Source: Planctomycetota bacterium
GTDB taxonomy: Bacteria; Planctomycetota; PUPC01; JACPCR01
DNA length: 64,000 nucleotides
Assembly: GCA_016179685.1 (NCBI GenBank)
Contig: JACPCR010000051.1
Location: forward strand, 137,965-201,964
Direction: 5' to 3'
In this document: positions 1,388-20,927 of the stretch, in pieces
Position numbering within the stretch: the first letter of the stretch is position 1
Layout: every line of letters starts with the position of its first letter
Position numbers and translations under genes: made by a program
The notes under the pieces: generated by a model
Databases searched by the model: none
Told to the model about the DNA's origin: nothing
What the model saw: only the letters and a program-made list of their open reading frames with translations

Positions 1388-1401
1388 GATTCCGACCGCG
1401 C

Positions 1402-3846
1402 ATGCGCCATGACGTTGAGATTCCGTATTCCATTTCCAAGCCTCCCGACTTGAAGCTTACTCTACTGGCGCTCACTGTCCTTCTGGCGCTCGCACTCGCT
1501 CCTGCCGGGAGTCCGGCCCCGCCCCCAGACCTCGATGAGGAAGCGGTCCAGCGATGCCTCGCGGCCCTGCGGGCCGACCCGTTCCTCGATGGGCCGTTCA
1601 ACCGGCTGGTGGACCTTTATCGCCGTGCGGGCCGCCTCGATGACATGGAAGCGGACCTGAGCGTTCGAGTGGGAGATCGGACCTGGGGACAGGCCGGGCC
1701 TCCCTTGATCGCCCGCGTCCAACTCCGGGCCGGCCGGCCGGAGGCCGCCCGACAGACCGTGCTGGACGCCTTGTCGGTCTGGCCGGAGTCCCCCGACTTG
1801 TGGGAATGGCGGTCCAGGATCGACGAAGGCCAGGGGCGTCCATCCGATGCCCTCGAGGCCGCCGAGTCCGCCTTACGAGTCGCTGGGGCCGGTTCGAGAC
1901 GGCTTCGCCTGGTCGAGCGCCAGGCGAGTCTCTTCTTCAAGCTGAATCAGCCGAAAAAGGCCGCTGAAGCCCTGATCGGGGAACTGCGCCAGTCGCCCGC
2001 CGACTCCATTCTTTTCAAACGAGTGATACGCCCTCTGCAGGAACACCTCTGCTGGGATGAAGCCTTGGCCGCCGTGGAGACTCATCGGAACGCTCTACCC
2101 GAAGGAAGCCCGGACACCGTCCAGGCCCGGCTCGTCCAAGCCGAAATCCTCTGGGAATCCGGCCGATATGCGGATTCCCTCGAGGCCGTTCAGTCCCTGA
2201 TGTCCTCTCTGCCGCCGGACCGGGCAGAGTGGACGCAAGCCCTGGAATCCTTGCTCGGATTCAAGAGTCGGCTTGAGTTTGTCCCGGCCATCAACGAATT
2301 TCTGAGAAATGCGGTTCGTTCTTCGCCGGACCCGAAATGGAGGATTGCGCTGGCCCGTTTCGGCATTTTGACCGGTGAGGAGCGGGCGGCCCGGGCGGCC
2401 CTATCTCCCTGGGAGCGGGGCCCGGTGGAGGCATGGGGTGAAGGTGGCGAGGGGCAGGCCGTGCAAGCCCGCGCGGAGTGTGCGGCCGAGGTGGCCCGGC
2501 TCTGGGCGCGGCTCGGCGAGGGGGCCGAGGCGATCCGATGGCTCGAATACGCTTCGGAACTTCAGCCGCGCCGGACGGATCTCCTCCTCGAGCTCGCGGG
2601 TCTGTGCGGCCACGCCGGAGATGTCGAACGGCAGCGGGCGATCGCCCGGAATGTCCTCCAGGTCGCTCCAGAGTCCCACGATGCCGTGCGCGCGCGTCGC
2701 AACCTGTATTCGAGCTTCCTCGGCGAAGGCGTGGAGCTTTTCCGCACCCGTCGGCCGCAGGATGCAACCGCGCCCTTGCGGCAGGCGGGCGACTTCGCCG
2801 AGAACGATTGGGAGGAGGCAGAGGCGGCCTTATGGCTCGCGCTCGCCCTCGAACAGGCCGGGATGCATGGGTCCGGATCGGCCTGGCCTGACCCGGCCGA
2901 AATTCCCGCGCGCGCGCGGCTGCGGCCGATGCCGGGCCTGGAGATCGCCGCCCGGCAAGCCCGCCGCTTCGCCCGGCCGCCAAAGCTCGATCCGGCCAGC
3001 GTGCAGGAGCAACCGTCCCATGACTCCCGGCTCGTTTGGACGTTCGAGCCGGTGAATCCGGAAAACCCGGTCGTCGCCGCCTTGGCCCTCGGCGATTTCG
3101 CCGTGGGTCAACTGGCCTCCGGGTCGCTCGTGGGCATCGAACTCTCCACGGGCCTGCCGCGCTGGACGAGCCCGTCGCCGCGGGGCGTGCCGCTGGCGGG
3201 CCGACTCCGGGGCGCAGAGGGGTGCGTGCTGGAGGCCGATGGGCCTGCGCTCAGGGCGCGGATGGCTTCGGACGGCATCGTGTCTTGGGAACGGCCTTTG
3301 AAGGGCCTGCCCCTCTCTTTCGACGCCGCTGAAGACGTGGCCGCGGCCCTCACCGAGGAGGGGTGGATCGAGGTCTTCGGACTCGGCAACGGAAAAAGCC
3401 TCTGGCAGCACCCCATCAAGTTGTTCCTGGAGGACCACCAGGACATGACGCCGGAATTGCACGTGCGCCGAAACCAGGTCACGGTAGCCTCCGGCCCCAT
3501 CCTGTCGGCCTTCGATGCGGCCTCCGGAGAGTTCCTCTGGCAATGGATTCCTGATGTCGCCGGGTCGTGGAATGACTCCTTTCACAGCTTCCACTGGACG
3601 AAACACGGGATCGAGGCGCAACGGCACTCCGGGGACCGATGGGTTTTCTGGAACGACCATCCTCTGGCGTTTGTCGAGATTCCCGCGCTGAAGTCCTCCG
3701 AGACGAGGACAGCGGCCGGGGACGGGCCTTCTACCGAGTTGGCCGAAGAGGCCGAAGGGTGGCCGGCCGGGCCGCACCCCTGGCGCGTGAAGGTGAGCCG
3801 CGAGGGTTCGCTTCACGCGTATCAAGATGCCGGAAGCATGCCGTAG
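1402..3846 (+). CDS. Exported TPR-repeat protein with C-terminal PQQ/BamB-like beta-propeller
   Basis: Hydrophobic signal-like stretch LTLLALTVLLALALAPA (true start may be TTG near 1450), helical TPR-like repeats, propeller blades such as ELSTGLPRW, GNGKSLW, AFDAASGEFLW. Confidence 0.8.
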   Translation: MRHDVEIPYSISKPPDLKLTLLALTVLLALALAPAGSPAPPPDLDEEAVQRCLAALRADPFLDGPFNRLVDLYRRAGRLDDMEADLSVRVGDRTWGQAGPPLIARVQLRAGRPEAARQTVLDALSVWPESPDLWEWRSRIDEGQGRPSDALEAAESALRVAGAGSRRLRLVERQASLFFKLNQPKKAAEALIGELRQSPADSILFKRVIRPLQEHLCWDEALAAVETHRNALPEGSPDTVQARLVQAEILWESGRYADSLEAVQSLMSSLPPDRAEWTQALESLLGFKSRLEFVPAINEFLRNAVRSSPDPKWRIALARFGILTGEERAARAALSPWERGPVEAWGEGGEGQAVQARAECAAEVARLWARLGEGAEAIRWLEYASELQPRRTDLLLELAGLCGHAGDVERQRAIARNVLQVAPESHDAVRARRNLYSSFLGEGVELFRTRRPQDATAPLRQAGDFAENDWEEAEAALWLALALEQAGMHGSGSAWPDPAEIPARARLRPMPGLEIAARQARRFARPPKLDPASVQEQPSHDSRLVWTFEPVNPENPVVAALALGDFAVGQLASGSLVGIELSTGLPRWTSPSPRGVPLAGRLRGAEGCVLEADGPALRARMASDGIVSWERPLKGLPLSFDAAEDVAAALTEEGWIEVFGLGNGKSLWQHPIKLFLEDHQDMTPELHVRRNQVTVASGPILSAFDAASGEFLWQWIPDVAGSWNDSFHSFHWTKHGIEAQRHSGDRWVFWNDHPLAFVEIPALKSSETRTAAGDGPSTELAEEAEGWPAGPHPWRVKVSREGSLHAYQDAGSMP

Positions 3847-3939
3847 TAGACGAGTTTGCAAGTGCGGATGCAGTTGCAAACTCGTCTACTCGTATCCCTA
3901 TTCAGAAGTGCGGGTGCACTTCTGAATAGGGATACGAGT
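3845..3939. repeat. Two tandem REP-like palindromes (family A)
   Basis: 17-bp perfect IR agtagacgagtttgcaa 3845-3861/3874-3890, then 24-bp perfect IR 3888-3911/3916-3939 with GGGT loop. Confidence 0.9.
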
Positions 3940-3959
3940 TCCTGTAGCGGAAGAAGTAG

Positions 3960-4466
3960 ATGAAGACCTACAGGCCTTCCATGTTCGCACGAGGGTTTTT
4001 CCTGGCCATCCGAGGCGGAAATGCCTGGACACATCTTTTGCCCGGCATCTTGACGCCACTCTGCCTCGCCGCGGGCTGCCAAACCGCGGCCGGGCCATTC
4101 CTCGGCGTCCCTGAAGATCAGGATGTCCGGATCGAAGACCGGCAGTCCGCCCTCTTCGGCACGGTCACCCTGACCCGGGTTCAGCTCCGGGACTACCAGA
4201 CCTATCTTGCCCTCAAGCGTGACGAGCTGATCAGCGAGGAGGAGACCAGGGACGGTTACGTCTATTACGCCGTGGACGAGATTCGACACCTCCCGACAGG
4301 TTCCCTGAAGAGCGGTTCGCCCGGCGGGGCCTTCGTGACCGTTCGGGAAAGATACCGCGCCAGGATACCCGATGGAGACGGCAGCGCTCCCACCGGCGGT
4401 GCTGGCGCATCACCGGCCGAGGGTCAGGGGATCACGGGCCGGGGACTCGATAGCAACGACGAGTAG
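3960..4466 (+). CDS. Putative lipoprotein, hypothetical
   Basis: Hydrophobic segment ending in lipobox-like LAAG|C, located within the MoxR-DUF58 operon. Start uncertain (3960 or 3981). Confidence 0.65.
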   Translation: MKTYRPSMFARGFFLAIRGGNAWTHLLPGILTPLCLAAGCQTAAGPFLGVPEDQDVRIEDRQSALFGTVTLTRVQLRDYQTYLALKRDELISEEETRDGYVYYAVDEIRHLPTGSLKSGSPGGAFVTVRERYRARIPDGDGSAPTGGAGASPAEGQGITGRGLDSNDE

Positions 4467-4508
4467 ACGAGCTTGTCAATGCGGGTGCACTGACGAGCTC
4501 ATCGACTC
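4461..4508. repeat. REP-like palindrome (family A), degenerate
   Basis: gagtagacgagcttgtcaatgc-gggt-gcactgacgagctcatcgactc. Its GTAG supplies the upstream stop codon 4464-4466. Confidence 0.8.
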
Positions 4509-4529
4509 TGGCAGCGCGAGTAGAAGGTC

Positions 4530-5393
4530 ATGGCACTTTTTGAACGCTCGTTCTTCTCCCAGCTTCACGGCCTGCGAATCGTCTCGCGCCGGCTGGCCCA
4601 AGGCCGGCTTTTCGGCGAGGCGAGGGGACTGCGCACCGGCCGTGCGGGCGAGTTCGCCGACCACCGGCGCTATGTGCCGGGAGACGATTTCCGCAGCATC
4701 GACTGGCCAGCCTACGGGCGGCTGCGCAAACCGTTCGTGAAGCTCTCCGAGTCCCGGGAGGAAAGGCCGGTCACCCTGGCGCTTGACGCCAGCGCGTCGA
4801 TGCGATTCGGCCAACCGCCGCGGTGGGACTACGCGCGCCGGCTGGCCGCCGCCCTGGCCTTCGTCGCCCTCGACAGCCGGGAACGAGTCACCATCCTCCG
4901 GTTCGCGGAGCGGCCGGAGGCGCTGATGCCTTCGCTCCACGGGTCCGGAAAGTTCCGGGAGCTGTGCGGCCGGCTCGAATCGGCATCGCTCTCGGGACGC
5001 GGCAGCGTCTCCAACTGCCTGGCCTTTCTTCCCGCTTTCTGCCCCGGACGCGGACTCATCATCGTGATCTCCGATTTCCTGGACTCCCGCGAGGCCGGCC
5101 GAGCCCTGTCGACCCTGGCCGGCACGCGCCACGAAATCATCCTCCTTCACCTCTTCACCCCCTGGGAAGCCATGCCGGAGCTTCCCGGCGATTGGGAGCT
5201 GGAGGACATGGAGACCGGAGAGACCGTTCCGGTAGACGGGGGGGACACCGCGATGGCCGCGTATCGAGGCCGATTTCGGGCTCTGTCCGAGAAGCTGCGG
5301 TCGCTGGCCCTGCGCCGCGGGATGCACTACGTGATGGCCTCGACCGGCGTGCCCGAGGCCACCCGGGTACGCGGTCTGCTCAACAGCTTATGA
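4530..5393 (+). CDS. DUF58 / VWA-like MoxR partner protein
   Basis: GEFADHRRYVPGDDFRSIDW signature, MIDAS-like DASASM, ISDF, LEDMETGE. Confidence 0.93.
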   Translation: MALFERSFFSQLHGLRIVSRRLAQGRLFGEARGLRTGRAGEFADHRRYVPGDDFRSIDWPAYGRLRKPFVKLSESREERPVTLALDASASMRFGQPPRWDYARRLAAALAFVALDSRERVTILRFAERPEALMPSLHGSGKFRELCGRLESASLSGRGSVSNCLAFLPAFCPGRGLIIVISDFLDSREAGRALSTLAGTRHEIILLHLFTPWEAMPELPGDWELEDMETGETVPVDGGDTAMAAYRGRFRALSEKLRSLALRRGMHYVMASTGVPEATRVRGLLNSL

Positions 5394-5661: not shown

Positions 5662-7611
5662 TTAGAACGGGAGCTGGGTGATCGCCGACTTGATCAGCTT
5701 GAAGGCGATTCCGGTCATACCGATGAGGCCGAGGCCGCATCCGTATCCAGCGGCAAGGATTGGGGTGTACTGACTCCAGGCCTTTTCGCCGAACTTTTTC
5801 GCGAAGTAATACCGGCCCAGGAGGGCTGCGCCGAATTCGGGGATGAATCCGATGGCGTTGCCGGCCAGGCCGCGCACGGTGCCCCACAGGAACAGCTCGG
5901 GCAGCTTGAAGAAAGCGAGCAGCGGGAACGTCACGAGGACATAAACGACGCCCCAGAAGATGAAAAGCGGCTTGATCACGCTCATGAAAAAGTCGTTGCC
6001 GGTGGTGCTCGCCGTCCACCAGAGGCAGCCGTTGAACGCCCTCGGGGGCCAGAATTTCACGGCATTGGGATAGCTGGATGACGGGATTTCCCCCATTTTC
6101 CAGATCAAGGACCAGAACAGGATGCCGACGAAGACGGCCAGGGGAATGGCGATGACCTGGGCCTTGAACACGCTCGAAAACTTCGTCCCCGTAAGCTCGC
6201 ACTCCCGAAACCATTGGGCCGATCCGCCGGCGTCCCCGATCGGAATGGGCGCGTTCCAGATGTCCACTCCCTTGTAGCCCGTCAGCAGGATCGACGACTC
6301 CTTGACGAGCGGGAAGCCCGTGCCGTGCCCGGTGAGGCCGACCATCCGTGCGGAGACGTAGGAGACCATGGGAGTGTAGACGAAACCGAAGAACAGCAGA
6401 ATCCAAATGGGGAACTTGGGGACGAGGTAGTGGCAGATGATGATGGTTCCGGTGGTGGAGACGACGTAGAAGAGCAGCGCCATGAGGATGGGGATGTCCC
6501 CGCGGCCCAGCGGCGCCGGGATGAACTTTCGGTCGCCTCCCTCGCTTCGTCTTTCCTTCCAGGATTTTCTCAGCGAGCGGCCAACGGACCAGAATCCGAT
6601 CAGGGCCGTGCCAATCGCCGTGCCGATGCCGAAGCTCAACCAGAAGTCCAGCGTGTTGGCCTGGCCCGTGTCGATGACATCCATTCCGGGCTTCCACGTC
6701 GTCAAGACCCCCGTGTGGTGCAGGATGGGGTTCAAGATGAGCTGCCCGAGCACGGCGGCGAAGAAGCTCCCGGCCACCATCCAGAAGGGAAGCACGAAAC
6801 CGATGAAGATGATGCCGATGTTGGTTCCGATGGCGACAGGAACCGAAGGCAGGATCTTTTCAAAGTTCACGGTAAAATCCTTGAACGGGATGGGGATAAT
6901 GGTCAATTCGCGGTCGAAGACCACCCCGGTGACCGTTGGCACGCCGATGTAGACCGCCCCGTAGGCGAGTCCGATGGCGGCCCCGATGGTGAAGCAGCGC
7001 CAGCGCCAGGTCTGCTTCTCCGATTCTGCCAGCGCCGTGATACCCTGGGCGTTGATCGGGGCCATCGGGAACGGAAGGCGTTCGACGTCGGAGGTGATAC
7101 GGAACAGGGCGTATCCGAGGGAATAGAAGTTGAGCTGGCCCCAGACGATGAAAGTAGCCATCAGCGTCAGGTGGGGCCACCAGTCGTGGTGCAGCAGCGA
7201 GCGCAAGGCGTAGGCATCGGACCCGGGCGGTGGAGCGACCCAGAGCGGAATGCGGTCGCCGATCTCGAACATTTCGGCTGCGGGCGACTGCACGAAGAAC
7301 TGCATCCAGATGAACGAACCGATGCCGCCCTGGCCCAGGATGGTTCCCGTGAAGGCGAAGAGGATGAAAATCTCCTGCTTCCCCAGCTCCCGCCGGCATC
7401 GCTTCGCGATCTCCAGGAAAAGGATGAGGGTGACCCATTGGGAGACGCCGCCCAGGCTTTCACCCACCATGAGTCCCATGAACATGTCGCCCGGGACGAT
7501 CAGGAATCCCACGAACAGGCCGCCGAGCACGGCCATCCAGCCGAACCCATCCTTGTATTCCTTGATCTCCTCCGGAGCTTCCGGAGGCTTCTGGCTCTCG
7601 GTTTGTTCCAT
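5662..7611 (-). CDS. Multi-pass membrane protein, OPT/oligopeptide-transporter-like
   Basis: 649 aa with more than 12 hydrophobic helices and ERLPFP, APIP, YPN motifs. Starts 12 bp after the FtsX fusion stop. Confidence 0.8.
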   Translation of the reverse strand: MEQTESQKPPEAPEEIKEYKDGFGWMAVLGGLFVGFLIVPGDMFMGLMVGESLGGVSQWVTLILFLEIAKRCRRELGKQEIFILFAFTGTILGQGGIGSFIWMQFFVQSPAAEMFEIGDRIPLWVAPPPGSDAYALRSLLHHDWWPHLTLMATFIVWGQLNFYSLGYALFRITSDVERLPFPMAPINAQGITALAESEKQTWRWRCFTIGAAIGLAYGAVYIGVPTVTGVVFDRELTIIPIPFKDFTVNFEKILPSVPVAIGTNIGIIFIGFVLPFWMVAGSFFAAVLGQLILNPILHHTGVLTTWKPGMDVIDTGQANTLDFWLSFGIGTAIGTALIGFWSVGRSLRKSWKERRSEGGDRKFIPAPLGRGDIPILMALLFYVVSTTGTIIICHYLVPKFPIWILLFFGFVYTPMVSYVSARMVGLTGHGTGFPLVKESSILLTGYKGVDIWNAPIPIGDAGGSAQWFRECELTGTKFSSVFKAQVIAIPLAVFVGILFWSLIWKMGEIPSSSYPNAVKFWPPRAFNGCLWWTASTTGNDFFMSVIKPLFIFWGVVYVLVTFPLLAFFKLPELFLWGTVRGLAGNAIGFIPEFGAALLGRYYFAKKFGEKAWSQYTPILAAGYGCGLGLIGMTGIAFKLIKSAITQLPF

Positions 7612-7623
7612 GGCGTTTCTCTA

Positions 7624-10600
7624 TCAGGCTTTCTTGGACTCCGTCACGGCCGCCGCGGCCTCCGCTTCGCGCTGCCGGCGAGACTCTTCGGCCTCCTCGG
7701 CTCGCCGATGCGCTTCGAGCACCTCCGCCGGCGGCTGGCGTCCCAACAGCTCGTAGCCCCGGACCGTCAGTTCCCGCTTGTAACCCGCCTCCACCAGCCT
7801 CCAGATCAGGAGCTGCTTGCGGAGGTCCCTGAAGAATCCGGTATTCATCCGCCGCCACGTGTCGACCTCGCCCGACTCCCGATGGATGTGGAAGCGCAGC
7901 ACGTCCACCTTCGCATCGTCCGGCGCTTCCCGCGTTTCGATCTGCACCCGCTGGCTGATGCCCATGTCGAGCGGCGCGATCCAGACCAGGCTGTTGAGCG
8001 AATAGATGGGCTGGCCTGCCTCCTCCACCATTGAAAACTGGGTCTGGTCGGCGCAGAACCGGCCGATGGAGTCCTCGTCATGCGCCCGGAAGTAGTCGTA
8101 GAGGAAGAGGTTGAGAGCCACGGCCTCCGCCTTGCTGACCGTGAAGGGGAAGTCGAAGACCCACTCATCGCCGACGGGCTTGGGCAGCTTCAACTTACGG
8201 GTCTCGTCCGGCACGGAGATTTCGGCGGCCTTCTTGGCGGGGAAGAGGGTGGACAGAATGACGGTGGCCACGACGACGAGGGTCGTGACGACGGCCGAGG
8301 TGGAGGAATAGTTCACGCTGAGGTCGGTCCAGATGTTGAACCGGACGATCATTCGGGCGATGACCTGTCCGAGGAGGTAGCCGATGATCGAGCCCATGGT
8401 CGCGTAGACGCAGGATTCGGCGAGGAAGAGGGCGCTGATATGGACGGGGGCGAGCCCGACGGCGGCATAGATGCCGATCTCGCGGGTCCGTTCATAGACC
8501 GATCCGAGCATGGTATTGAAAACGATCAAAGCGGCGATGAGGATGGGCACGAAGAGACCGCGCAGGCCCTGAACCGACTGCCCGCTCCTCGAGCTATAGA
8601 GGCGCACCTGGCCCTGGCCCGTTTTCGAGCTTTTCATGCCGGCGAAAAGGATCAGCTTGAGACGCCGGACGTAGTCCTCCAGGAAATGGTCCAGCTCCGC
8701 GCTGGTCCGGTTATCCAGCTTGACGGCCAGGGACCGGATGGAAGCGCCGAGCTGGACGGAGAGGCCGGACGGGATGATCAGGACGTTATCGCCCTCGAGG
8801 TGGATGTACAGCTCCGGCAAGGTCTCCTCCGATGCGGCGGAGTCCTGTCCGCCGGACGCCCGCGCTTGTTCCGCCTGGTCCTTCCTCGACTGCATTTCGA
8901 TGAAGTCCACGGGCGTCAGGGGCTCGTTATCCAGGTCCCGCGTCTCATAGAAGGCCCCGCCATCCACCAGGCCGACGACACGGTATTCGTCGCCGGAGAC
9001 GCGCACGGCCTCGCGGCCCGGCACAAAGTCGTCCTGCTGGATTCCCAGAAACTCGGCCATCCTCTTGGGCAGGATGCAGACGAACTGGCCACGGTTCTCC
9101 TCCTCGGTGAACCATCGGCCTGCGAGGAGCTGGGGCCGCGACACCTCGGCCTCCGCGGGGCTCAGTCCCACGAGCGCCTGGGCCGAGTAGGTGCGTTCGG
9201 GGTCCTCCGCGTGGCGCACCTCGAGGGCCAGAGTGTCCCCCACCTGGGGGGCCGTCTTCCACGTCCGCAGGGCGATTTTCGCGTCGGGGCTGGTCCGGAA
9301 GTAATCCGCGATGCTGTAATACGCATGTTCCTCGAGGGGGCCCCAGTCCCTGCGGCGCAGGAGGACCCCCTGGTACGTCGCGGCATAGCTCGTCTCGACC
9401 TTGTTGAACACCAGGCCCGTGTCGAAGCTGGTGAAGGACATCACGGTGAAGGTCAGCAAGATGAGCGTGGCGCACGTCAGGACGGTCCGCATCTTGCGCC
9501 GGCGCATGTTGGAGATGCCCAGGATGAAGGCGGCCACCGCCGCGCTCCCCCGGGCCACGTCCGTGCCGTGGATCGCCGCCGTCTTCTCCCGGATTTTGGC
9601 CATCTGCGCGTTGAACTTGTTGAGGACGATCAGCGTCACCATCCCGCCCAGGGCCAGCGTGAAAAAGCCATCCAGAATGATCACCGGCGTCTGGGAGATG
9701 CGAAAGGCCGGATGGACGAAGTGGAGCACGACATAGACGGCCATGAAGAAGACGGCAATCCCGCAGAGCTGTTTCCGCAGGTCCGCGAAGGCGAAGAAGA
9801 GACGCTCGGCGAAGAAGGCGAACGGCAGAAGAATGGCAAAATAGAAGATGATCCCCCGGACCACGTCGTTCGCCGTGCTCTGAACATCCGGATACGCCCG
9901 GCCCTCGAGCGCCCATGCCTCCCGGGCCAGGTTCAGGAACTCGTCATACCGCCGCGCTTCCCGGCTCTTCCCGGCCGCCTGAAGCTTCTCCTCCGCGAGA
10001 CGGTGAAGGTCGCTCACCTGCTTGTTTCGAATCCCGGTCTTGCGCAGCTTTTCCATCCGGGACTGGTCCAGATTCCACATGTCCTTCGCGGCCTGGTAAG
10101 GCGAAAAGGGAAGGGTCTGTTCCCGGGCGGCCCGCAGGGGGAAGCCCCGTCCCTCTGCGTATTTCTCGTCCGTCTCGTCCGTGTTGAGCAGCGTGAACTT
10201 CGAGCCGAAGAGGCCCGCGCTCAGGATGAGCTTCACGTCGACATCCGGTTCGGCGAACACCACGGCGCAGGGCTCGGAATAGGACGATCCCCGGCTCTGC
10301 CCGAGGAACTGCGCGTAATACTTCGGCGCGGTGTTGGACTTCGCATCCAGGACCGTCAATTCCTTGAGGGTGGTGAAGTAGAGCTGGTCCAGGAGATCGA
10401 AGACCATGAACGACGAGCAGGGGAAGAGCGGCAGCCGCTGGTCCGGATTCCGTTCCCTCCGCCGGGCGCCCGAGGTGGCATGCGCCGACAGGGCCCGTTC
10501 GCTCCAGGAGCGGGTCTGGCCCCTGAACCGGAAGACGGCCCCCTTGTTGCCGACGAGATTGGCGATGCGTTCCACGCTCCCGTCCTTGCGGTCGAGCAGG

Positions 10601-12831
10601 AAGCCGCAGCACGCCACCTCCTTGTCGCGTTCCTTCGAGGCCCCGAACAGTTCGAAATTGCCGCCCCGGTCGGTGATCTGGTAGGTGTGTCCCCGAACGC
10701 CCATCATGGATTTCTGTTCGTGGATGGCCAGGGAAACCAGGGCGCCGGGGATGGGCGTCTGCGGTAGATAACTGATGAGCTGGTCCTCGATCACCCGGCC
10801 GTAGATGTCCCCGAACAGATTTTCCAGGTTCATCTCCAGAGGCAGGTCCGGGTCATTCACGATCTCGTAAAGGATGGGAAAGAGCAATCGCGTCTGGGCC
10901 AGGAGGTTTTCCGGATCGAAATTGTCCAGGTTGTCGTTGGGGGTGTCCACGAGCGCCCGCGTGTCGTTGGCGGTGACGAAGGAAAGGGAAGCGACTCCGG
11001 CGAGCAGCGGCAACTCCCCGTCCAAGGCGATCTGGTCGGGCATGTAGGACCGCCAATCGCGGCCGCGTTTGGGCACGACGCCGCTGACCACCTCGGCTGG
11101 GCCGGGACCGAGGAGCTTCCGGGCCGCCTCGGCGAACTCGAGGACACGGTCCGCGGTGGCAGCGAGCTGCCGCTGCAGCCTGAATTCGCCCGCCGAGCCG
11201 TACTCGTCGTAGAAATTCCCCTTGTAGAAAAGTCCCATCTGCTGGCCGCGGCTCGAAAGGTCGAGACCGATAAAGAGGGCCGGGAGCGCCTCGGGGGCCT
11301 CGCGCCGGGCCTCGCTCACCCACCGGGGATAGACCTTCTCGTAAAGGTCCGCCGCACGGCCTGCCACCTCCCGCATCCGGTCCAGATTCTTCTGGGCCTT
11401 CGCCTGCTTCAGTTCCTTTTTCAGGTCGTAAAGTTCCTCGACCTCCAGGGGAAAATCCGCGCCGAGTTGAAGGTCTCCCACCAATAAGAGGCATTCCGCC
11501 AGGAAATCCTCCGTCCCTTCCTCCAGCGCTTCCAGATCACGCGGCCCCTCCGGTCCGGCCAGCGCTTTCACCGATTCTCGAAGCTTCTGGACCTTCCCCG
11601 GCACGCTCTTTTCCGGGCTCTTCGGGTCCTCCTTCCCCAAAAAGTACTCCACGGCTTGCGTGCCCTTCTCACGCTGCAAGTAGACGTGTCGCGCCGTCCA
11701 GGCCCGGATGCCCCCCAGGGCCTGGAAGTGGGCGGACGTCGCTACGAACTCCACGGTTCGCCGCGGCGGATGGCTCGCGAGAAGCCGGGCGACCTCGAGG
11801 AGCGCCGCGATGCCGCAGGCGGCGTCCGCCCCAGGCGCCAGCGTCGGCACGACGGAGACCGAATCATAGTAGGCTTCGAGGACGATCGTCTGCCGGGAAA
11901 GGGTGGGGTCCGTGCCCGGCAACGTCGCCACAATATTATGCGCCGTCACTCTTTCCCAAGACATATTCGCCTGGAGCGCGGCTTCCGGGGCCGGACGGCC
12001 TTCGGGTCCCGCCAAGCCCAGGGCCGCCAAGGCCGCTAAGCAGGCCTCCTCCTCGCCGGGCGGAGGCGTCCCCACGGCCTGTGCAACGAGGGCCGGCAGC
12101 GCCCGCCGAGGCAGCCAATAGCGCGGGATCGGCGCCGGCATCAAAAGAAATTTTTGCATCGCTTCCGCCCGAAAAGCCGTCTCCGCCGGCTCGAGGAAGA
12201 CGACCGCCTTCGCCCCCATCATTCCCGCGTTGAGCCACCGTGTCGCGCTGTTGAAATCCATCAGCAGCACGCTGCCCTCCACCGGCTTCAGATTGAAGTC
12301 CGCCAGGTGACCTGAACGCACGTAGAGCAAGGGTCCCCGGACACCCGCCGCCGGCAGCTTCGAGGTCCGCGCCAGATTCGGCCAGAGCGCGTGAAGCTCG
12401 ATCGGGTCACCGCCGGGCCGCACCGTCAGCGTCGCCCCGCGGTCGACCGGCATCGCCAGCGTGAACGCCTCCACCCGCGGGTGCAGCCCGCATTCCTCGA
12501 ACTGATGCGCCACGAATTCCGCCGCGCGCCCACAGCCTTCCGAGCCCGGTAAGCGGCTTCCCAACTCGCTGAGGAATTCCACGGTCGGGGCAGGATGAAT
12601 GTGGCTGATAAAAGCCTGAAGCTCCTCGGCCGTCAGGCTGAGTCCTTCAGCGCAGGCCGAGGGAGTGGATGGGAACGGTGCGAGGACTGCCGCGCCCAGA
12701 AGGCTGATGAGAAGAGTACCGGAAGTAAGACGCACCGTCGGAATCCGCCCTGCTGAAGCCCACAAAAGGAAACGAATTTCAACGCGGGTGATACCCGCAG
12801 CCCAACAAGGCTCGGAAAGGTGGCCCGCCAC
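7624..12831 (-). CDS. Large membrane protein: PA + degenerate M28 peptidase-like ectodomain fused to a MacB/FtsX-type permease
   Basis: NIVATLPG..AYYDS..APGAD M28-like motifs, PA-like GPLLYV..GAKAVVF, ISNMRRRKMRTVLT MacB TM1, SVYERTREIGIYAAVG FtsX motif. Likely true start is GTG 12735, ahead of a signal peptide. Confidence 0.88.
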   Translation of the reverse strand: MAGHLSEPCWAAGITRVEIRFLLWASAGRIPTVRLTSGTLLISLLGAAVLAPFPSTPSACAEGLSLTAEELQAFISHIHPAPTVEFLSELGSRLPGSEGCGRAAEFVAHQFEECGLHPRVEAFTLAMPVDRGATLTVRPGGDPIELHALWPNLARTSKLPAAGVRGPLLYVRSGHLADFNLKPVEGSVLLMDFNSATRWLNAGMMGAKAVVFLEPAETAFRAEAMQKFLLMPAPIPRYWLPRRALPALVAQAVGTPPPGEEEACLAALAALGLAGPEGRPAPEAALQANMSWERVTAHNIVATLPGTDPTLSRQTIVLEAYYDSVSVVPTLAPGADAACGIAALLEVARLLASHPPRRTVEFVATSAHFQALGGIRAWTARHVYLQREKGTQAVEYFLGKEDPKSPEKSVPGKVQKLRESVKALAGPEGPRDLEALEEGTEDFLAECLLLVGDLQLGADFPLEVEELYDLKKELKQAKAQKNLDRMREVAGRAADLYEKVYPRWVSEARREAPEALPALFIGLDLSSRGQQMGLFYKGNFYDEYGSAGEFRLQRQLAATADRVLEFAEAARKLLGPGPAEVVSGVVPKRGRDWRSYMPDQIALDGELPLLAGVASLSFVTANDTRALVDTPNDNLDNFDPENLLAQTRLLFPILYEIVNDPDLPLEMNLENLFGDIYGRVIEDQLISYLPQTPIPGALVSLAIHEQKSMMGVRGHTYQITDRGGNFELFGASKERDKEVACCGFLLDRKDGSVERIANLVGNKGAVFRFRGQTRSWSERALSAHATSGARRRERNPDQRLPLFPCSSFMVFDLLDQLYFTTLKELTVLDAKSNTAPKYYAQFLGQSRGSSYSEPCAVVFAEPDVDVKLILSAGLFGSKFTLLNTDETDEKYAEGRGFPLRAAREQTLPFSPYQAAKDMWNLDQSRMEKLRKTGIRNKQVSDLHRLAEEKLQAAGKSREARRYDEFLNLAREAWALEGRAYPDVQSTANDVVRGIIFYFAILLPFAFFAERLFFAFADLRKQLCGIAVFFMAVYVVLHFVHPAFRISQTPVIILDGFFTLALGGMVTLIVLNKFNAQMAKIREKTAAIHGTDVARGSAAVAAFILGISNMRRRKMRTVLTCATLILLTFTVMSFTSFDTGLVFNKVETSYAATYQGVLLRRRDWGPLEEHAYYSIADYFRTSPDAKIALRTWKTAPQVGDTLALEVRHAEDPERTYSAQALVGLSPAEAEVSRPQLLAGRWFTEEENRGQFVCILPKRMAEFLGIQQDDFVPGREAVRVSGDEYRVVGLVDGGAFYETRDLDNEPLTPVDFIEMQSRKDQAEQARASGGQDSAASEETLPELYIHLEGDNVLIIPSGLSVQLGASIRSLAVKLDNRTSAELDHFLEDYVRRLKLILFAGMKSSKTGQGQVRLYSSRSGQSVQGLRGLFVPILIAALIVFNTMLGSVYERTREIGIYAAVGLAPVHISALFLAESCVYATMGSIIGYLLGQVIARMIVRFNIWTDLSVNYSSTSAVVTTLVVVATVILSTLFPAKKAAEISVPDETRKLKLPKPVGDEWVFDFPFTVSKAEAVALNLFLYDYFRAHDEDSIGRFCADQTQFSMVEEAGQPIYSLNSLVWIAPLDMGISQRVQIETREAPDDAKVDVLRFHIHRESGEVDTWRRMNTGFFRDLRKQLLIWRLVEAGYKRELTVRGYELLGRQPPAEVLEAHRRAEEAEESRRQREAEAAAAVTESKKA

Positions 12832-12834
12832 ATC

Positions 12835-13142
12835 CCATCGGGATCCCTACTAACGTTCCATCGGGATCCCTTCGGGAGGACAGGTCCATGCCCCAACGTC
12901 GCTCCCCATGGGATGCCACCAGAAACGAGATCACCCTAAGAGCATCCCTCCCACGGGGACAGGTGCGGGAGGGGCAAGCCAGGGTTGGGCCGGCCAAGCC
13001 GGGCCAACCCTGGCTCTGAAATCCGCGAGCCCGGAGGGCGCAGCGGATTTCATAAGACTTTAACAGAGAAACCCGGGAGGATCAAGACTCGTATCCGGGC
13101 GCGGAGGCGTACCCGCACTTCCGTGCACGGATACGAGTCTTG
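12835..13142. repeat. Mosaic of small palindromic repeats in a divergent intergenic region
   Basis: Direct repeat ccatcgggatccct (12835, 12858), ccctccc..gggagggg hairpin 12946-12974, hairpin 12978-13014, family B repeat 13008-13053, family A copy in reverse orientation 13083-13142. Confidence 0.8.
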
Positions 13143-13168: not shown

Positions 13169-13289
13169 AAACGTCCGGTGAAGGATGACCACGAGCCCCC
13201 GCGGGGCACGAAAACAGCACCGGCCAGGTGGGGGTCCGTTTTCCTTCTCCTATCCTGTGCCGCTCCTTGTGACTGCAAACCCCTCAACC

Positions 13290-13661
13290 ATGCCCAAAAA
13301 GGAAAAGGACGATCTGGATTTCGAGATTGAATTCTTTGAAGGTATCGTGCAGCACGATCCTTCCTACCAGGAACCTCTCATGGCACTCGGCCACGCCTAC
13401 ACCCAGCGCGGCCTCTACCAGAAAGGCCTCGAGGTCGACCGGCAGCTTGTCCGTTTACGGCCCGACGACCCGATTGCTTATTACAACCTGGCCTGTTCCC
13501 TGTCCCTCCTTAACGAGCTGGATTCCGGATTCGATGCCCTCCTGCGCGCTCTTCAGTTGGGCTACCGGGACTACTCTTATCTCCTGAAGGACCCCGACCT
13601 GGCTTCGCTTCGCAAGGACCCGAGGTTTAGCCGGTTGGTCCTCGCTCGTCTGACCAAGTAG
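13290..13661 (+). CDS. Small TPR protein
   Basis: LGHAYTQRGLYQKGLEVD, PDDPIAYYNLACSLSL, C-terminal DPDLASLRKDPRF cap. ATG at 13290 is preferred over 13185. Confidence 0.85.
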   Translation: MPKKEKDDLDFEIEFFEGIVQHDPSYQEPLMALGHAYTQRGLYQKGLEVDRQLVRLRPDDPIAYYNLACSLSLLNELDSGFDALLRALQLGYRDYSYLLKDPDLASLRKDPRFSRLVLARLTK

Positions 13662-13685
13662 AGGGCGGAGGGAGGCTGCACTTCA

Positions 13686-14579
13686 TTGAACGACACGGAC
13701 CGGAAACCCGTCGAGCCTGTCCGGGAAACTTCGATCCGCAGCCAAGTGGGTCGTCTCCTGCTCGCGGCGGGACTGGTGCTCGGCGTCACCGCCGTCTTGT
13801 ACTGGATGTTCCGAGTGGACCTGCCCGGCCGGGTCCAGGAGATGGAAAGCCACTTGGCCAGCCCGGACGACAAGTTCCGGAAACTGGCGGCCTACGAACT
13901 ATGGAAAATCGGGGAAGGAACGTCTCCTGAACAGCGCGCTCGAGTGGGCATCCTCGACGGCAGGGTGGGCCAGAAGCTCCTCGCCCTCTACCGGCGGGGT
14001 GACCTCGAGGAGGAAGAGACGAGGCGATTTCTTATCCTGGCCCTGGGCTATTTCGGCTGCCAGGATGCCCTGCCGGACCTGGTCCGGGAAGTTCAGAATC
14101 CGGGCTCGATTTCCAGCGATCTCCGCCTGGACGCGGTCTACAGCCTGGGTTTACTGCAGAACCGGGAAGCGGCAGGGAGTCTCGTGGAGGCGACGCGGAG
14201 CGAGAATCCGGCGATGCGGAGAGCGGCGGCGGCGGCCCTGGGCAAGCTGGGCGATCCCAGGGCCGAGGGGCCCCTCGAGGCGCTGCTCGAGGACACCCAT
14301 GCCGAGGTGGCCTGGACGGCCGCGTTGGCGCTCGGGGAGCTGGGAAACCCGGCGGGCCAGAAAAGCTTCGAGGCCATGCTGGACCGCCAGGTGCTTCAGG
14401 GCCGGCCCGAGTTGGACGAGGAGGCCCGGTCCCGGATCATGATTCACGTCATCCGGGCGGTGGACCGATTAAAACTCCGTTCCTTCAGGGTCAGATTGGA
14501 GCGTCTCGGGGAGACCGACCCGAATCTGAGGGTGAGGAGCGAAGCGATGCGAGCGCTGCGCAGCCTGGCGGGCGACTGA
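13686..14579 (+). CDS. Membrane-anchored HEAT/PBS-lyase repeat protein
   Basis: N-terminal TM LLLAAGLVLGVTAVLYW, repeats RRAAAAALGKLGDPRA, WTAALALGELG, DPNLRVRSEA. Confidence 0.85.
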   Translation: MNDTDRKPVEPVRETSIRSQVGRLLLAAGLVLGVTAVLYWMFRVDLPGRVQEMESHLASPDDKFRKLAAYELWKIGEGTSPEQRARVGILDGRVGQKLLALYRRGDLEEEETRRFLILALGYFGCQDALPDLVREVQNPGSISSDLRLDAVYSLGLLQNREAAGSLVEATRSENPAMRRAAAAALGKLGDPRAEGPLEALLEDTHAEVAWTAALALGELGNPAGQKSFEAMLDRQVLQGRPELDEEARSRIMIHVIRAVDRLKLRSFRVRLERLGETDPNLRVRSEAMRALRSLAGD

Positions 14580-14723
14580 CGAGCCGCCCCTCCGGCTACC
14601 GGTTGGATCAATCGGGACATCGCGGTCCTGGGCGCCTACGCCATCGGGCCATGGGTGGTTCGTCACGGGTGCAGCCCGCCTTGAAGTCGCGTCAGAACTG
14701 AGTGAAACCGGCGAGTCGGCTGA

Positions 14724-14751
14724 CAAATCGCAAATCGCAAATGGCAAATGG
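14724..14751. repeat. Heptamer tandem repeat (caaat[c/g]g)x4
   Basis: caaatcg caaatcg caaatgg caaatgg between convergent genes. Confidence 0.8.
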
Positions 14752-14764
14752 AACAACTCTGGCT

Positions 14765-16270
14765 TCACTGAATACCTATGCGCCGCACCTCCCTCCACGC
14801 GGCCGCCCAGATCAGCAGAAGCGGCAGAAGGCTCAGCAGGCCAGGCAGCCCGGCCAGCTCCCCGAGGTTGAAGGAGCTCCAGGCCGCGGCCGGGGAGACG
14901 GGCAGGCCTTCCTGCTCCGGCGGCAGTCGATCGAGCAGGCTTTGAGTGTTTACGGATACCCGGTTCGCCGCGAGATGCCGGAACGTGTGCTCGAACAGGG
15001 GATTCTCGATCTCGAAACGCGGGGACGGGTTGACGGCGGTCACGGCGGTCTGGATGAGGACGGACAGGCTCAGCAGGCCGAAGAACAGTGCAGGAAGGCG
15101 TGGCCAGAAGAAGTAGAGGGACACGGCGAGGAAGGGGAGGCAGGGGACGAGGTAACGGGGCCCCGCTGACCATCCGCCTTCCCAATGGATGAAGGCCGCG
15201 TTCAGGGAGAGGTAGAAGAGGACGATTGAGAGGCAGGCCAGGGCTTCGAGCCGTCGGCCCCAGCGGGCGCTCAGGAAGGCCGCGGCGCCCGGGATGGCCA
15301 GGACCAGCAGGGGCGATGTGAAGAAGAGCCCGCGCTTTGGCAGGAAGGTCAATTCGAGGAACACTCGGAGGGGCGGCCAGCGGAACACGCCTCCCTTCGA
15401 GTCCTCGAACAGCGGATTCTGATAGGTATAGTTCGTGGCGAAGGGGCTGCCGAAGCAGGCCTGGTGATAGGCCAGGAGGCCGGCCACCGGGAAGGCCGCA
15501 CCCGCAGCGAACCGGACGAGTCCGCGCCGGGGTTCGGGCCCGAGGAGGCGATAGCCGAGGAGGAAGGCGACTGCGGCCGCGTTGTTGTATTCGACGAGGA
15601 TGGCGAGGCCGGCGAGGAGGCCGGCGATCGTATCCACATCCAGCCCTGCCGCCCGGCCCGGCTGGCCCGCCTCGCGAACGGACCCGTACTCGTGCCGCAG
15701 CCAGAGTGCGAAGATGAAGAAAGTAAGGGCCGCGGAGACCTGGTGGGCCTGGAACAGGGTGGCCCATGGAAAGGCGAGCGTGCCGAGGGAATAGCCGGCG
15801 GTGACCCACAGGCGGGGTCCCACGGGGCCCGGACGCAGGTATCCCAGGGCGCTGAAGAGCGCGGCACCGAGCGCCGCAGAGACCAGCGCCATGCTGCACA
15901 CCGTCGCCACGTAGGCGTTGAAGTGGATCAGAGCCAGGGAGCCCAGAGGATGAACTCCAACCAGGACCTCTCCCCAGTAGAGGACCGCGTAGACCGGCAC
16001 GGCCAGGAAGGAGATGCCCGGCGGCTTGTTGGGGTACACCCGGCCCCGGTGGTAGGCGACGTCGTCCGTGTTCGTCGCCATGCTGCCCGGTTCGAGCCGG
16101 CCGTCGGGTCCGTAGCGTCCGATGACCAGGCTGCCTTCTTCCACGATGGACCAGGTGAGATCGAAACGGGCGTTCTGATTCCAGCCGCCGCCCTGGAAGA
16201 AATAGGCGTACGTCAGGAACAGGGTCCAGAAAATCGTACGCCGGACGCTCCGTTCCCTCCGTTCTTCCAT
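14765..16270 (-). CDS. Integral membrane glycosyltransferase-like protein (GT-C/ArnT-PMT-like)
   Basis: About 11 TM helices, periplasmic loop with NKPPG, RGLFFTSP, WEGGWSAGPRYLVP motifs typical of GT-C-fold membrane proteins. Confidence 0.7.
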   Translation of the reverse strand: MEERRERSVRRTIFWTLFLTYAYFFQGGGWNQNARFDLTWSIVEEGSLVIGRYGPDGRLEPGSMATNTDDVAYHRGRVYPNKPPGISFLAVPVYAVLYWGEVLVGVHPLGSLALIHFNAYVATVCSMALVSAALGAALFSALGYLRPGPVGPRLWVTAGYSLGTLAFPWATLFQAHQVSAALTFFIFALWLRHEYGSVREAGQPGRAAGLDVDTIAGLLAGLAILVEYNNAAAVAFLLGYRLLGPEPRRGLVRFAAGAAFPVAGLLAYHQACFGSPFATNYTYQNPLFEDSKGGVFRWPPLRVFLELTFLPKRGLFFTSPLLVLAIPGAAAFLSARWGRRLEALACLSIVLFYLSLNAAFIHWEGGWSAGPRYLVPCLPFLAVSLYFFWPRLPALFFGLLSLSVLIQTAVTAVNPSPRFEIENPLFEHTFRHLAANRVSVNTQSLLDRLPPEQEGLPVSPAAAWSSFNLGELAGLPGLLSLLPLLLIWAAAWREVRRIGIQ

Positions 16271-16604
16271 GGCTTTTTATGGTCCCTCGACGCCGTGCGG
16301 GGCGCAGAGAAGTTACAGCCTGGGACCTGTCCTCCTGGAGGGATAGCGTTTCCACAGCCATGGGGAAACCGCGCTCAACGTTGGACGCGTCGGCGCAAGA
16401 GTAAGAAAGCCAGTCTAACCGGTTCGAAGCAGATGACAAATGAGGATGTGACTCAGAAGTCCCATGACAGACGGGCCCCGACGCTCATACGAGCACACGT
16501 GCAAGGAAGCGCACCCGCTCCGAGGCCCGCCTGTCACGGTACATCGGAATTGGAGTTGTCCACAAGTTCCAGGCAACGCCCGGGGCGGGGCGGCGCGTTC
16601 GGTG

Positions 16605-17897
16605 TTATCCCCGGCCGGAGCAGTTCCTTTTCCTCGCTTCCCACCAGCGTTCGGCCCAGGGACGCCGGGGTTCTTCGGGCCGGCCCCCGAGCGACACGCT
16701 TTGGGCCAGCTCTTCAGGCGACATACCGGCGTCCGGGGACCGCGTTTCAGGAAAAAGCTGCGTCAGGCGCTCCGTGAGCGGCCCCGCGCCCCGGAGGAAC
16801 TCGATGCCGATGCGCAGGCAGAGGAGCGGCATCTCCAGCTCGAGGAGCGGCTGGAATTTGACCGCGTCCTTTTGAGTGGTCAGGAGGGCATCGGCCCCCA
16901 GGCGGCGGGCCTCGGAAACCAGGGCCAGCAGGTCATCACCCGTATACCAGTGATGGTCCGGATACTCGCAGAAGCCCACGAGAATCACGTTCAAATCCTG
17001 GACGGCACGGCGAAAGCCTTCAGGATTCCCGAGGGCGCAGAAGGCCAGGACGCGCTTTTGTTTCAACCATCCCATGCCGACGGGGGAAAGGTCCGGGCAC
17101 TGCAGGACTTCCTTGACTCGGTGAGCGGAGGTGAGGATGGGAGTCCGGGGCGCGAGGCGGCCGATCCGCTCGTGCAGGGCGTCCAGCGCCGCAGGACCCG
17201 CCTGGTCCGCACGAGTCAGCACGATCAGGTCGGCGCGGCGCATGCCCTGGACGGGCTCTCGCAGCAGGCCGCGGGGGAGGAGATGGCCGTACCCGAAGGG
17301 ATTCAGGGCATCGATGAGAAGGATGTCGAGGTCCCGGTGCAGTCGCCGGTGCTGGAATCCGTCGTCGAGGAGAAAGCATTCAGGCGGCGGCTGCAGGCGC
17401 TCCATGGCCGTCCGCGCTCCGCGAAGTCGGTCGGGGCCCAGGATCAGGTGCACCCCATCGAGGTTGGCCTGGAGCAGGAGTCCCTCGTCATGGATGCCCG
17501 GGGGAAGGCCGGAAAGCTCGCCGGCGGGCGAGGGGCTTGGCCGCTGCCCGTAGCCGCGGCTCAGGACGGCGACGCGGTAGCCTCGCTTGCGAATCCAGCG
17601 GGCGATCCACTCGACCATGGGAGTCTTTCCAGTCCCGCCCGCGGTGAGATTGCCGACGCTGATCACGGCGGCATCGACGAGATGGGTTCGAAACCACTTC
17701 CCATCGTAGAGGGCGTTGCGGATGCCCACTCCGACCCGATAGCACCAGGAGAGGCCGGAGAGCGACAGCCGTTCCGCCGTTGCAGCCGCCCCGACGGTCT
17801 CACCTCGGATGAGCTTCAGGTAGGCGCTTCGCCGCCGAACGGACGCCGCGGCCGGCAACTCCGGACTGTCCATGGGCAAGGTGGCGTTTTCAGGCAT
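16605..17897 (-). CDS. lpxK: Tetraacyldisaccharide 4'-kinase
   Basis: VISVGNLTAGGTGKTP, LSRGYG, DE, LLDDGFQH, LLPRGLLRE, YPDHH, LTTQKDAVK. Start at 17897 or 17873. Confidence 0.95.
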   Translation of the reverse strand: MPENATLPMDSPELPAAASVRRRSAYLKLIRGETVGAAATAERLSLSGLSWCYRVGVGIRNALYDGKWFRTHLVDAAVISVGNLTAGGTGKTPMVEWIARWIRKRGYRVAVLSRGYGQRPSPSPAGELSGLPPGIHDEGLLLQANLDGVHLILGPDRLRGARTAMERLQPPPECFLLDDGFQHRRLHRDLDILLIDALNPFGYGHLLPRGLLREPVQGMRRADLIVLTRADQAGPAALDALHERIGRLAPRTPILTSAHRVKEVLQCPDLSPVGMGWLKQKRVLAFCALGNPEGFRRAVQDLNVILVGFCEYPDHHWYTGDDLLALVSEARRLGADALLTTQKDAVKFQPLLELEMPLLCLRIGIEFLRGAGPLTERLTQLFPETRSPDAGMSPEELAQSVSLGGRPEEPRRPWAERWWEARKRNCSGRG

Positions 17898-20419: not shown

Positions 20420-20424
20420 CCTCT

Positions 20425-20883: not shown

Positions 20884-20927
20884 ACGGAAGACTCGGTGTG
20901 GAGAAGCAGGGCCCACAATCGAGGCTC

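Follow-up and report, generated by a model that had tools for sequence, protein, structure and literature searches.

The 64,000-nt stretch analyzed here (contig JACPCR010000051.1 of a Planctomycetota bacterium; hereafter the window, whose coordinates are used throughout) carries two consecutive genes, both on the minus strand, that encode a giant protein and a polytopic membrane partner (table 1). In the giant, a large ectodomain with the fold of PA-domain M28 aminopeptidases precedes a permease of the MacB/FtsX type. The partner is distantly related to the OPT superfamily. The original prediction, made from the sequence alone, had singled out three M28-like motifs (AYYDS, APGADAACG, and SAHFQALGG), all of which are present, in open reading frames (ORFs) and at positions as claimed. 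It had also given the order of domains as an M28-like domain, a periplasmic region, a transmembrane (TM) bundle, a MacB-like loop, FtsX, and a cytoplasmic tail, with which Pfam matches and hydropathy agree, and had placed the OPT-like gene 12 bp downstream, which is the distance found between stop codon and ATG.

Table 1. Coordinates of the two genes, their domains and motifs, and neighboring genes in the window
Feature	Position	Strand	Residues or length	Evidence or remark
Gene 1, giant PA/M28-like ectodomain plus MacB/FtsX-type permease	7624..12831	-	1,735 aa as longest ORF	
Probable signal peptide or uncleaved N-terminal TM helix	12646..12735	-	33-62	...PSACA/EG; hydropathy, homologue N-termini, DNA
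PA plus M28 aminopeptidase-fold ectodomain	10837..12663	-	57-665	AlphaFold2 model, Foldseek, VIA-align, column counts, HMM and hhalign mapping
Motif AYYDS	11860-11874	-	320-324	
Motif APGADAACG	11812-11838	-	332-340	
Motif SAHFQALGG	11710-11736	-	366-374	
Beta-rich periplasmic domain(s) plus helical stalk	9862..10836	-	666-990	model secondary structure
Extra three-TM-helix bundle	9616..9855	-	993-1072	hydropathy, alignment
MacB-type TM1 plus periplasmic core domain	8557..9492	-	1114-1425	Pfam MacB_PCD, PDB MacB matches
FtsX domain, TM2-4	8215..8553	-	1427-1539	Pfam, NCBIfam, and PDB sequence matches, alignment
Cytoplasmic tail domain, helix-grip-like	7627..8214	-	1540-1735	AlphaFold2 model, fold searches
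Gene 2, divergent OPT-superfamily polytopic membrane protein	5662..7611	-	649 aa	ATG 12 bp past the gene 1 stop
TPR protein gene	13185-13661	+		
HEAT-repeat protein gene	13686-14579	+		
ORF	14469-16439	-	656 aa	no Pfam match
LpxK gene	16605-17969	-		
Anaerobic ribonucleotide reductase NrdD gene	18053-20419	-		
DUF255 thioredoxin-like protein gene	21060-23357	+		

Three Pfam profiles match the giant above their cut-offs: Peptidase_M28 (PF04389) at residues 299-368 (44.2 bits, cut-off 21.3, covering profile positions 1-66 of 193 only), MacB_PCD (PF12704) at residues 1116-1294 (32.1 bits, cut-off 27), and FtsX (PF02687) at residues 1427-1539 (54.8 bits, cut-off 25.5). A hydropathy scan found a signal-like segment at residues 35-56, a soluble stretch extending to residue ~990, and three TM helices at about 993-1072. 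TM1 (1114-1136) comes next and is separated from TM2-4 (1427-1533) by another soluble stretch, and the tail (1540-1735) is soluble as well. The periplasmic ectodomain comprises ~930 aa.

The longest ORF of the giant begins with a GTG at 12831, and the version stored in the database, of 1,652 aa, begins at residue 84, with which the signal peptide would be lost. The true start is probably the GTG at 12735 (residue 33), favored because it best fits the N-termini of homologues and the DNA, and which would give the protein a signal peptide. The public start call (region 12582-12831, minus strand) is likely a start-site error.

When compared to the PDB, the C-terminal half of the giant matched MacB best (5lil; E = 6.9e-12 for the single sequence and 5.8e-13 for a profile), followed by YtrF, LolC, and LolF. 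NCBIfam models matched below threshold only (ADOP, MacB, LolC/E, and FtsX; MacB, for example, scored 34.2 against a cut-off of 966). The giant falls outside ADOP (TIGR03434), with 45.5 bits against a cut-off of 622.3 and one FtsX module only. It does have FtsX TM2-4 and a periplasmic core domain between TM1 and TM2, and on its sequence the giant is classified as a type VII (MacB/LolC/FtsX-type) permease of the ATP-binding cassette (ABC) class. Within the TM2-TM3 loop, E1447, R1448, and E1451 are invariant (ERxxE); in MacB-type proteins, this loop is the coupling helix, on which the ATPase docks. The extra bundle of three TM helices that precedes TM1 also has invariant residues (G993, F996, P1003, E1009, R1010, L1011, F1029, H1040, P1041, and F1056). 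A duplicated FtsX module, with the bundle as a degenerate FtsX and the signal segment as its TM1, was considered for this region and rejected. Such a topology would be compatible, but the sequence does not support it, as the bundle has no profile similarity to FtsX TM2-4 (hhalign probability 0.4%).

The tail was modeled by AlphaFold2 (residues 1536-1735) with a predicted local distance difference test (pLDDT) score of 93.6, and its elements follow the order beta-alpha-beta4-alpha plus long helices. Fold matches were to Aha1 C-terminal, START, KA1, and BamC-N-like domains (VIA-align Z 8-9.1; Foldseek E = 9e-4 at best), and a search of the Protein Atlas with the tail gave no usable match. In the model, the tail shows no more than a widespread helix-grip-like arrangement, and it is clearly no nucleotide-binding domain.

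Databases list over 2,055 relatives of the OPT-like protein, and NCBI calls some of them "peptide transporter" or "OPT/YSL family transporter". The OPT profile (PF03169) matched nine of 53 aligned homologues, with a best E of 1.5e-9. These matches place the protein in a predicted remote branch of the OPT superfamily rather than among its core members. Because the kinship is remote, the substrate is not readable from the family name.

Fold and pocket of the ectodomain

For giant residues 57-990, AlphaFold2 gave a model from 60 sequences with a mean pLDDT of 92.7 and a predicted TM-score (pTM) of 0.91. Foldseek searches of the PDB with this model were headed by PA-domain aminopeptidases, with E values from 7e-22 to 1e-19 at the top: 2ek8 (E = 7e-22), BSAP (6hc6/6hc7), and PaAP. 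The transferrin receptor (TfR) and GCPII ranked after them. VIA-align, with a library of 48,161 representatives, gave the Aeromonas aminopeptidase 1rtq as best match (Z 29.1; 268 of 291 residues aligned at a root mean square deviation of 2.6 Å), followed by 2ek8 (Z 27.8), TfR (Z 25.6), and glutaminyl cyclases (Z ~25). Matches to GCPII (Z 22.9) and to 7w72_A (Z 19.7), which we take to be a noncatalytic M28-like subunit of the GPI-transamidase, were weaker. In the model, the M28 core is complete and is interrupted by the PA domain.

The original prediction had likened the ectodomain specifically to nicastrin and nicalin. This likeness proved weak, given that the family sequence profile matched 2ek8 with an E of 7.5e-17 and nicalin with an E of 2.3e-7, and that both fold searches were headed by active aminopeptidases. 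With the single sequence, nicalin was matched in the PDB at an E of 0.011, and nicastrin had no match in the single-sequence or profile searches. Neither nicastrin nor nicalin is among the 50 matches listed by Foldseek or by VIA-align, an absence that does not count against a relationship.

Beyond the M28 core, the structure is beta-rich at model residues ~617-850 and forms a helical stalk at model residues 854-933, and the fold searches scarcely covered these parts. The M28 domain itself has an insertion at residues ~380-510 (11300-11700, minus strand), ~110-140 aa long and modeled as helical with a pLDDT of about 88-95. This insertion is found only in close relatives of the window's protein (63-74% identity) and is a short loop in most family members. 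Domain content varies elsewhere in the family too: the Planctomycetota relatives P0138, P0139, and P0141 (1,955-1,960 aa; loci L003 and L004) have many Pfam matches to WD40/beta-propeller domains besides the FtsX module, and they retain the pocket columns of the M28 domain in the alignment.

In canonical M28 enzymes, the metal ligands are His, Asp, Glu, Asp, and His, and the general base is the first Glu of an EE pair. Two alignments relate these residues to those of the giant. HMMER pairs the family pattern AYYDS...APGA.ESACG...TSGHFQAL with SHHDS...APGANDDASG...FGAEENGL of 2ek8, and hhalign, with a probability of 98.4%, pairs the family with a canonical PA-M28 protein of the same genome (motifs HHD, AADN, AEE, and WHTPYD). 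Together they map the canonical His to Tyr321, the bridging Asp to Asp336 with one residue deleted just before it, the catalytic Glu to His368, the Glu ligand to Phe369, and the last His to Asp629. The partner of His368 is the first Glu of AEE in 2ek8 as well as in the genome's own canonical M28 protein. From the spacing of motifs (LFIGLDLSS...GLFYKG compared to LQLYYDGHG...ELFVTG), we read Asp524 by eye as the putative second Asp ligand. A phmmer search of the PDB with residues 505-660 for the strand carrying this ligand returned nothing useful.

Residues of the pocket were counted by column in an alignment of 119 family members that are only 37-74% identical. Three columns are invariant (D323, H368, and D524, each in 119 of 119). 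Column 336 has Glu in 105 sequences and Asp in 12, the window's giant being one with Asp. Column 321 has Tyr in 107, Phe in 10, and His in two; column 369 has Phe in 72, Tyr in 25, and His in 21; and column 629 has Asp in 73, Asn in 32, and Gly in 11. Of the changes named in the original prediction, His to Tyr and EE to HF agree with HMMER, hhalign, and the column counts. The third, Asp to Ala, was an alignment slip caused by the one-residue deletion in GA-D/E-xACG; the Asp is retained, and is Glu in most of the family.

Just two or three carboxylates of the five-ligand set are kept in the giant, and an invariant His takes the place of the catalytic Glu. The canonical pattern HxD...GAxD[ND]...EE, searched as a regular expression, occurred in none of the 150 best library matches of the ectodomain. 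On these residues, the giant is predicted not to be a canonical co-catalytic di-zinc aminopeptidase, and the original description of the domain as dead is safe in this sense only. As a description of the whole site it was not borne out. Because Asp323, His368, and Asp524 are invariant and an acidic residue at position 336 nearly so (117 of 119) over sequences this divergent, the site is suggested to be still working. The pattern points to a pocket that has been remodeled rather than one that has decayed, with a putative role as a binding pocket or a one-metal center.

Conservation and genomic context of the pair

A scan at the species level, with one genome per species, gave at least 599 pattern matches and at least 572 confirmed relatives of the giant; the best 80 loci provide the counts that follow. 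These loci are from metagenome-assembled genomes labeled Planctomycetota/Brocadiaceae, Latescibacterota, Poribacteria, Gemmatimonadota, Armatimonadota, Nitrospirota, or unclassified bacteria. In 76 of the 80, an OPT-like gene is directly downstream of the giant and on the same strand, at a gap of -12 to 1,050 bp, and these cases span at least six phyla. Among the exceptions, L052 and L061 have no OPT-like gene within 10 kb, the contig of L071 ends 144 bp past the gene, and L079 is arranged differently. The ectodomain alone has relatives in at least 584 clusters (50% identity) at E ≤ 1e-30 among 1.84 billion representatives. Of the best 150 matches, 101 have 1,300 aa or more, and the remainder are indistinguishable from fragments.

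The two genes also co-occur at the level of genomes. Of 151 genomes sampled evenly from the window's phylum, 24 matched the giant and 23 the OPT-like gene, these 23 having both, and 127 had no match to either gene; the one genome with the giant only is 89% complete. Several of these genomes have two to four pairs. A giant match lies directly upstream and on the same strand at 37 of 43 distinct OPT-like places; because at most three giant candidates were scored per genome, the six places without a match are not evidence of absence. The window's genome has a second, paralogous pair on contig C49 (giant, 16344-21260; OPT-like, 13673-15970; both on the minus strand; locus L081, 10670-18488). Relative to the window pair, its giant is about 37-41% identical and its OPT-like protein, which has 798 aa and an insertion, is ~45% identical. 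The C49 giant retains the pocket signature (YYDS, PGADQACG, GHH, and LDLSS), and the neighbors of the C49 pair are unlike those of the window pair.

The adjacency in 76 of 80 loci, the co-occurrence in genomes, and the second paralogous pair argue for a functional link between the two genes, as the original prediction had proposed, and its expectation that they co-occur in other genomes held in 23 of the 24 giant-positive genomes of the phylum sample. The giant and the OPT-like gene form a conserved, co-inherited module.

Neighboring genes were compared by clustering all ORFs of the 80 loci and the window, with tblastn and family checks. The pair itself aside, no gene of the window is conserved as a neighbor in the 80 loci. 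In other loci, the most frequent neighbor is a PqqD-family gene (PF05402, E = 2e-12; 47 of 80 loci), usually after a gene for a conserved ~311-aa protein. An ATPase of the LolD/MacB/DevA/FtsE type is in the flanks of 32 loci, a DUF6785/DUF6784 membrane protein is upstream in 26, a small TPR protein is upstream in eight, and a short FtsX-only protein of 214-220 aa is present in seven. Outside Planctomycetota, the order after the pair is the ~311-aa protein, the PqqD-family protein, an FtsX-only protein of 214 aa in some cases, and the LolD-type ATPase; examples of these accessory genes are in L005 (16390-19676), L007 (8107-10334), and the Poribacteria loci L026 and L037. A PilZ-domain ORF follows the ATPase in L007.

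The original prediction had noted that no ABC ATPase adjoins the two genes. This holds for the window, in which the ABC ATPase profile (PF00005) has none of its 62 matches in the genome; the sole match on the contig lies ~74 kb before the window, and none is beside the C49 pair. It does not hold for the family, as the 32 flanking ATPase genes attest. Between phyla, the module ATPase is far more conserved than the giant (70-87% compared to about 37% identity). In the Poribacteria loci, the ATPase follows the PqqD-like gene and the giant is the sole FtsX gene present. Since an ATPase resides there in a module without another FtsX gene, these loci argue most strongly for the giant being a genuine ABC permease. 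Searching the window's genome with the accessory FtsX-only protein returned generic FtsX matches only.

The DUF6785/DUF6784 protein is polytopic, about 650-700 aa long, and encoded directly upstream of the giant (L003, 7806-9869; L018, 7571-9685; L029, 7891-9861; and 23 others). In four Latescibacterota loci, a LolD-type ATPase gene precedes it. By eye, it has an ERL(P/N)FP motif in common with the OPT-like protein. BLASTP between the two proteins gave a best E of 0.57, and no relation was shown.

Candidate functions and rival explanations

We tentatively favor a peptide-capture or peptide-processing system that is coupled to OPT transport by FtsX-type mechanotransmission, a reading that we hold to be close to, but short of, an even bet. 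The ectodomain would bind a periplasmic peptide or the free N-terminus of a protein in its conserved pocket, and may trim the bound peptide with one metal and the His. Mechanotransmission of the FtsX type would move the ectodomain, with a LolD-like ATPase as the driver. In other phyla this ATPase would be the one encoded in the operon, and in the window's genome it would be encoded elsewhere or be missing. Once captured or processed, the substrate would cross the cytoplasmic membrane by way of the OPT-like partner.

Several observations weigh against this reading, which is weakest in taking import as the direction of transport and a peptide as the substrate. Type VII systems described so far act in export, extraction, or regulation, and we know of none that imports. 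The PqqD-like gene would be no less compatible with the maturation or export of a peptide than with import, and tblastn found no homologue of it in the window's genome, which is 90% complete. Neither an ATPase, a short FtsX protein, nor a PqqD-like protein is encoded near the pair in any of the nine Planctomycetota-labeled loci, or near either pair in this genome. The best match in the genome to the module ATPase (47% identity) is within an ordinary MacAB-like operon, which encodes one ATPase, two permeases of the FtsX type, and an HlyD protein. Because the pair has no ATPase nearby and the best candidate belongs to this operon, an ATP drive in the window's organism is unproven. Similarly, the window's OPT-like protein lacks a match to PF03169 even at E ≤ 10, and lacks any Pfam or NCBIfam match, so a specificity for peptides is borrowed from the name of a distant family. 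Within the pocket, hhalign set the counterpart of the Asp ligand 16 residues away from D524, with low confidence.

A bolder proposal is that the giant and the OPT-like protein are one physical machine of an undescribed kind, which we consider unlikely. The FtsX-type permease, as mechanotransducer, would work a remodeled M28 receptor that seizes the end of a periplasmic polymer, either a peptide or the N-terminus of a protein, and hands it to a channel with a secondary-transporter fold, making the whole a hybrid of primary (ABC) and secondary (OPT) transport. Within this proposal, the Planctomycetota version may do without a dedicated ATPase and the helix-grip tail may be a sensor of ligand or lipid.

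Other explanations differ in what they ask of the pocket and of the partner. The replacement of the canonical His, Glu-Glu, and His positions, the profile match to nicalin, and the fold matches to 7w72_A and TfR would be consistent with a catalytically dead receptor like nicastrin, nicalin, or GPAA1. Its obligate pairing with a large polytopic membrane protein would then reflect a machine for the assembly of membrane proteins or of the envelope, and not a nutrient transporter. However, the closest relatives by sequence and by fold are active bacterial aminopeptidases, nicastrin has no sequence match, and the pocket residues are invariant rather than drifting. The neighborhoods also have no sign of protein insertion or assembly. 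We give a dead receptor a small chance. The genes that do recur in neighborhoods could fit export and processing of peptides. MacB-type systems export, and a PqqD-family gene follows the pair in more than half of the loci together with the ~311-aa protein and often the ATPase. The giant would be a MacB-like extruder whose M28-like domain handles a peptide that is secreted or made by ribosomes. The PqqD-like protein would be the chaperone of that peptide, and the OPT-like protein would be a membrane conduit or would act in recapture or immunity. But neither a precursor peptide nor a modifying enzyme (radical SAM, cyclase, or protease) was seen in the loci examined, and no gene for a membrane-fusion or outer-membrane factor is beside the pair in the window or the four loci scanned. 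The pair moreover persists in this genome and in the Planctomycetota-labeled loci, where the PqqD-like gene was not found. Export is an improbable explanation in our view.

A regulator of the cell wall resembling FtsEX has a slim chance. Its M28-like domain would bind or cut stem peptides of peptidoglycan under the control of an ATPase, and the OPT-like protein would recycle the peptides. Fusion of a hydrolase-fold domain directly to a permease is consistent with such a role, as are the weak matches of the FtsX-type module to FtsX models and structures, and FtsEX is described as controlling periplasmic hydrolases (PMC7668044, PMC12505981). No conserved genes of cell division or peptidoglycan are beside the pair, though, and up to four copies per genome and a patchy presence in the phylum (23-24 of 151 genomes) also speak against this role. 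That the giant and the OPT-like gene are mere neighbors with independent functions is barely credible. Their adjacency across at least six phyla, the OPT-like gene in all but one of the giant-positive genomes of the phylum sample as compared to 127 genomes with neither matched, and the duplication of the pair as a unit in the window's genome all argue against it. The remaining probability belongs to an explanation that nobody has thought of.

The preferred reading, peptide capture coupled to OPT transport, combines parts that resemble known systems and differ from each of them. Like MacB, LolCDE, FtsEX, YtrF, and LolF, the giant has FtsX TM2-4 and a MacB-like periplasmic core domain, and, in two-fifths of the loci, a LolD-type ATPase nearby. 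Unlike these type VII systems, it adds a 930-aa PA/M28 ectodomain, three TM helices before TM1, and a C-terminal helix-grip-like domain of ~200 aa. Its OPT-like partner gene is obligate, and in the window's genome the giant adjoins no ATPase gene. The complete M28 core with a PA insertion is shared with the aminopeptidases of Aneurinibacillus (2ek8), Bacillus subtilis (BSAP/YwaD, 6hc6), and Pseudomonas aeruginosa (PaAP), and is related to that of Aeromonas (1rtq). In contrast to these enzymes, the giant has His for the catalytic Glu, two or three of five ligand positions that are noncanonical, a one-residue deletion in GAxD, and a tether to the membrane through a permease. With TfR, nicalin, nicastrin, and 7w72_A, it has in common a membrane-attached PA/M28-type fold without the canonical zinc/Glu set, but it is less like these proteins than like the active aminopeptidases, its pocket is strictly conserved, and it is fused to an ABC-type permease. 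The partner resembles the OPT/YSL family (PF03169, TC 2.A.67) in being polytopic, in its size of ~650 aa, and in the profile matches of some homologues, and differs in forming a subfamily of its own, whose genes almost always follow that of the giant.

To our knowledge, type VII ABC systems (MacB, LolCDE, FtsEX, and BceAB) are the known cases of mechanotransmission at the inner membrane, and their periplasmic effector is always a separate protein or a small domain. In the giant family, the permease carries an entire receptor of the aminopeptidase fold and is genetically tied to an OPT-fold transporter, a pairing that points to an undescribed envelope machine. A literature search found no paper on the M28-FtsX fusion, its OPT partner, or DUF6785. 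The family is large and crosses phyla that mostly lack cultured members and that matter in groundwater, sediments, and sponges. Should the giant and its partner act jointly, they would represent a new coupling of ATP-driven conformational work to a secondary transporter, and bacterial OPT proteins would gain a concrete partner. Sites of M28 proteins have been repurposed in TfR, nicastrin, nicalin, and glutaminyl cyclase, and the invariant, remodeled Tyr/Glu/His/Asp pocket offers a clean test case for such repurposing.

Other features of the window

The giant gene and the divergent TPR gene are separated by an intergenic region of 353 bp with two strong hairpins. One, at 12977-13015, has 18-nt arms that are 94% complementary and a 3-nt loop, and the other, at 13083-13142, has 23-nt arms that are 91% complementary and a 14-nt loop. 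Neither hairpin has a match in Rfam, and a scan for promoters and terminators, together with Rfam, found nothing exceeding chance. Public sequencing runs comprise four DNA runs from a single groundwater study, and no RNA runs are listed.

Two candidates for additional parts of the module were rejected. The TPR gene is divergent from the pair and has no tblastn match to the TPR genes upstream of the pair in L005 and L007. A MoxR/DUF58 cluster on the other side does not recur next to the pair in the 80 loci. This cluster, at 389-5393 on the plus strand and convergent with the OPT-like gene, encodes a MoxR AAA+ ATPase, an 814-aa protein with TPR and a PQQ-like beta-propeller, a 168-aa protein, and a DUF58/VWA protein.

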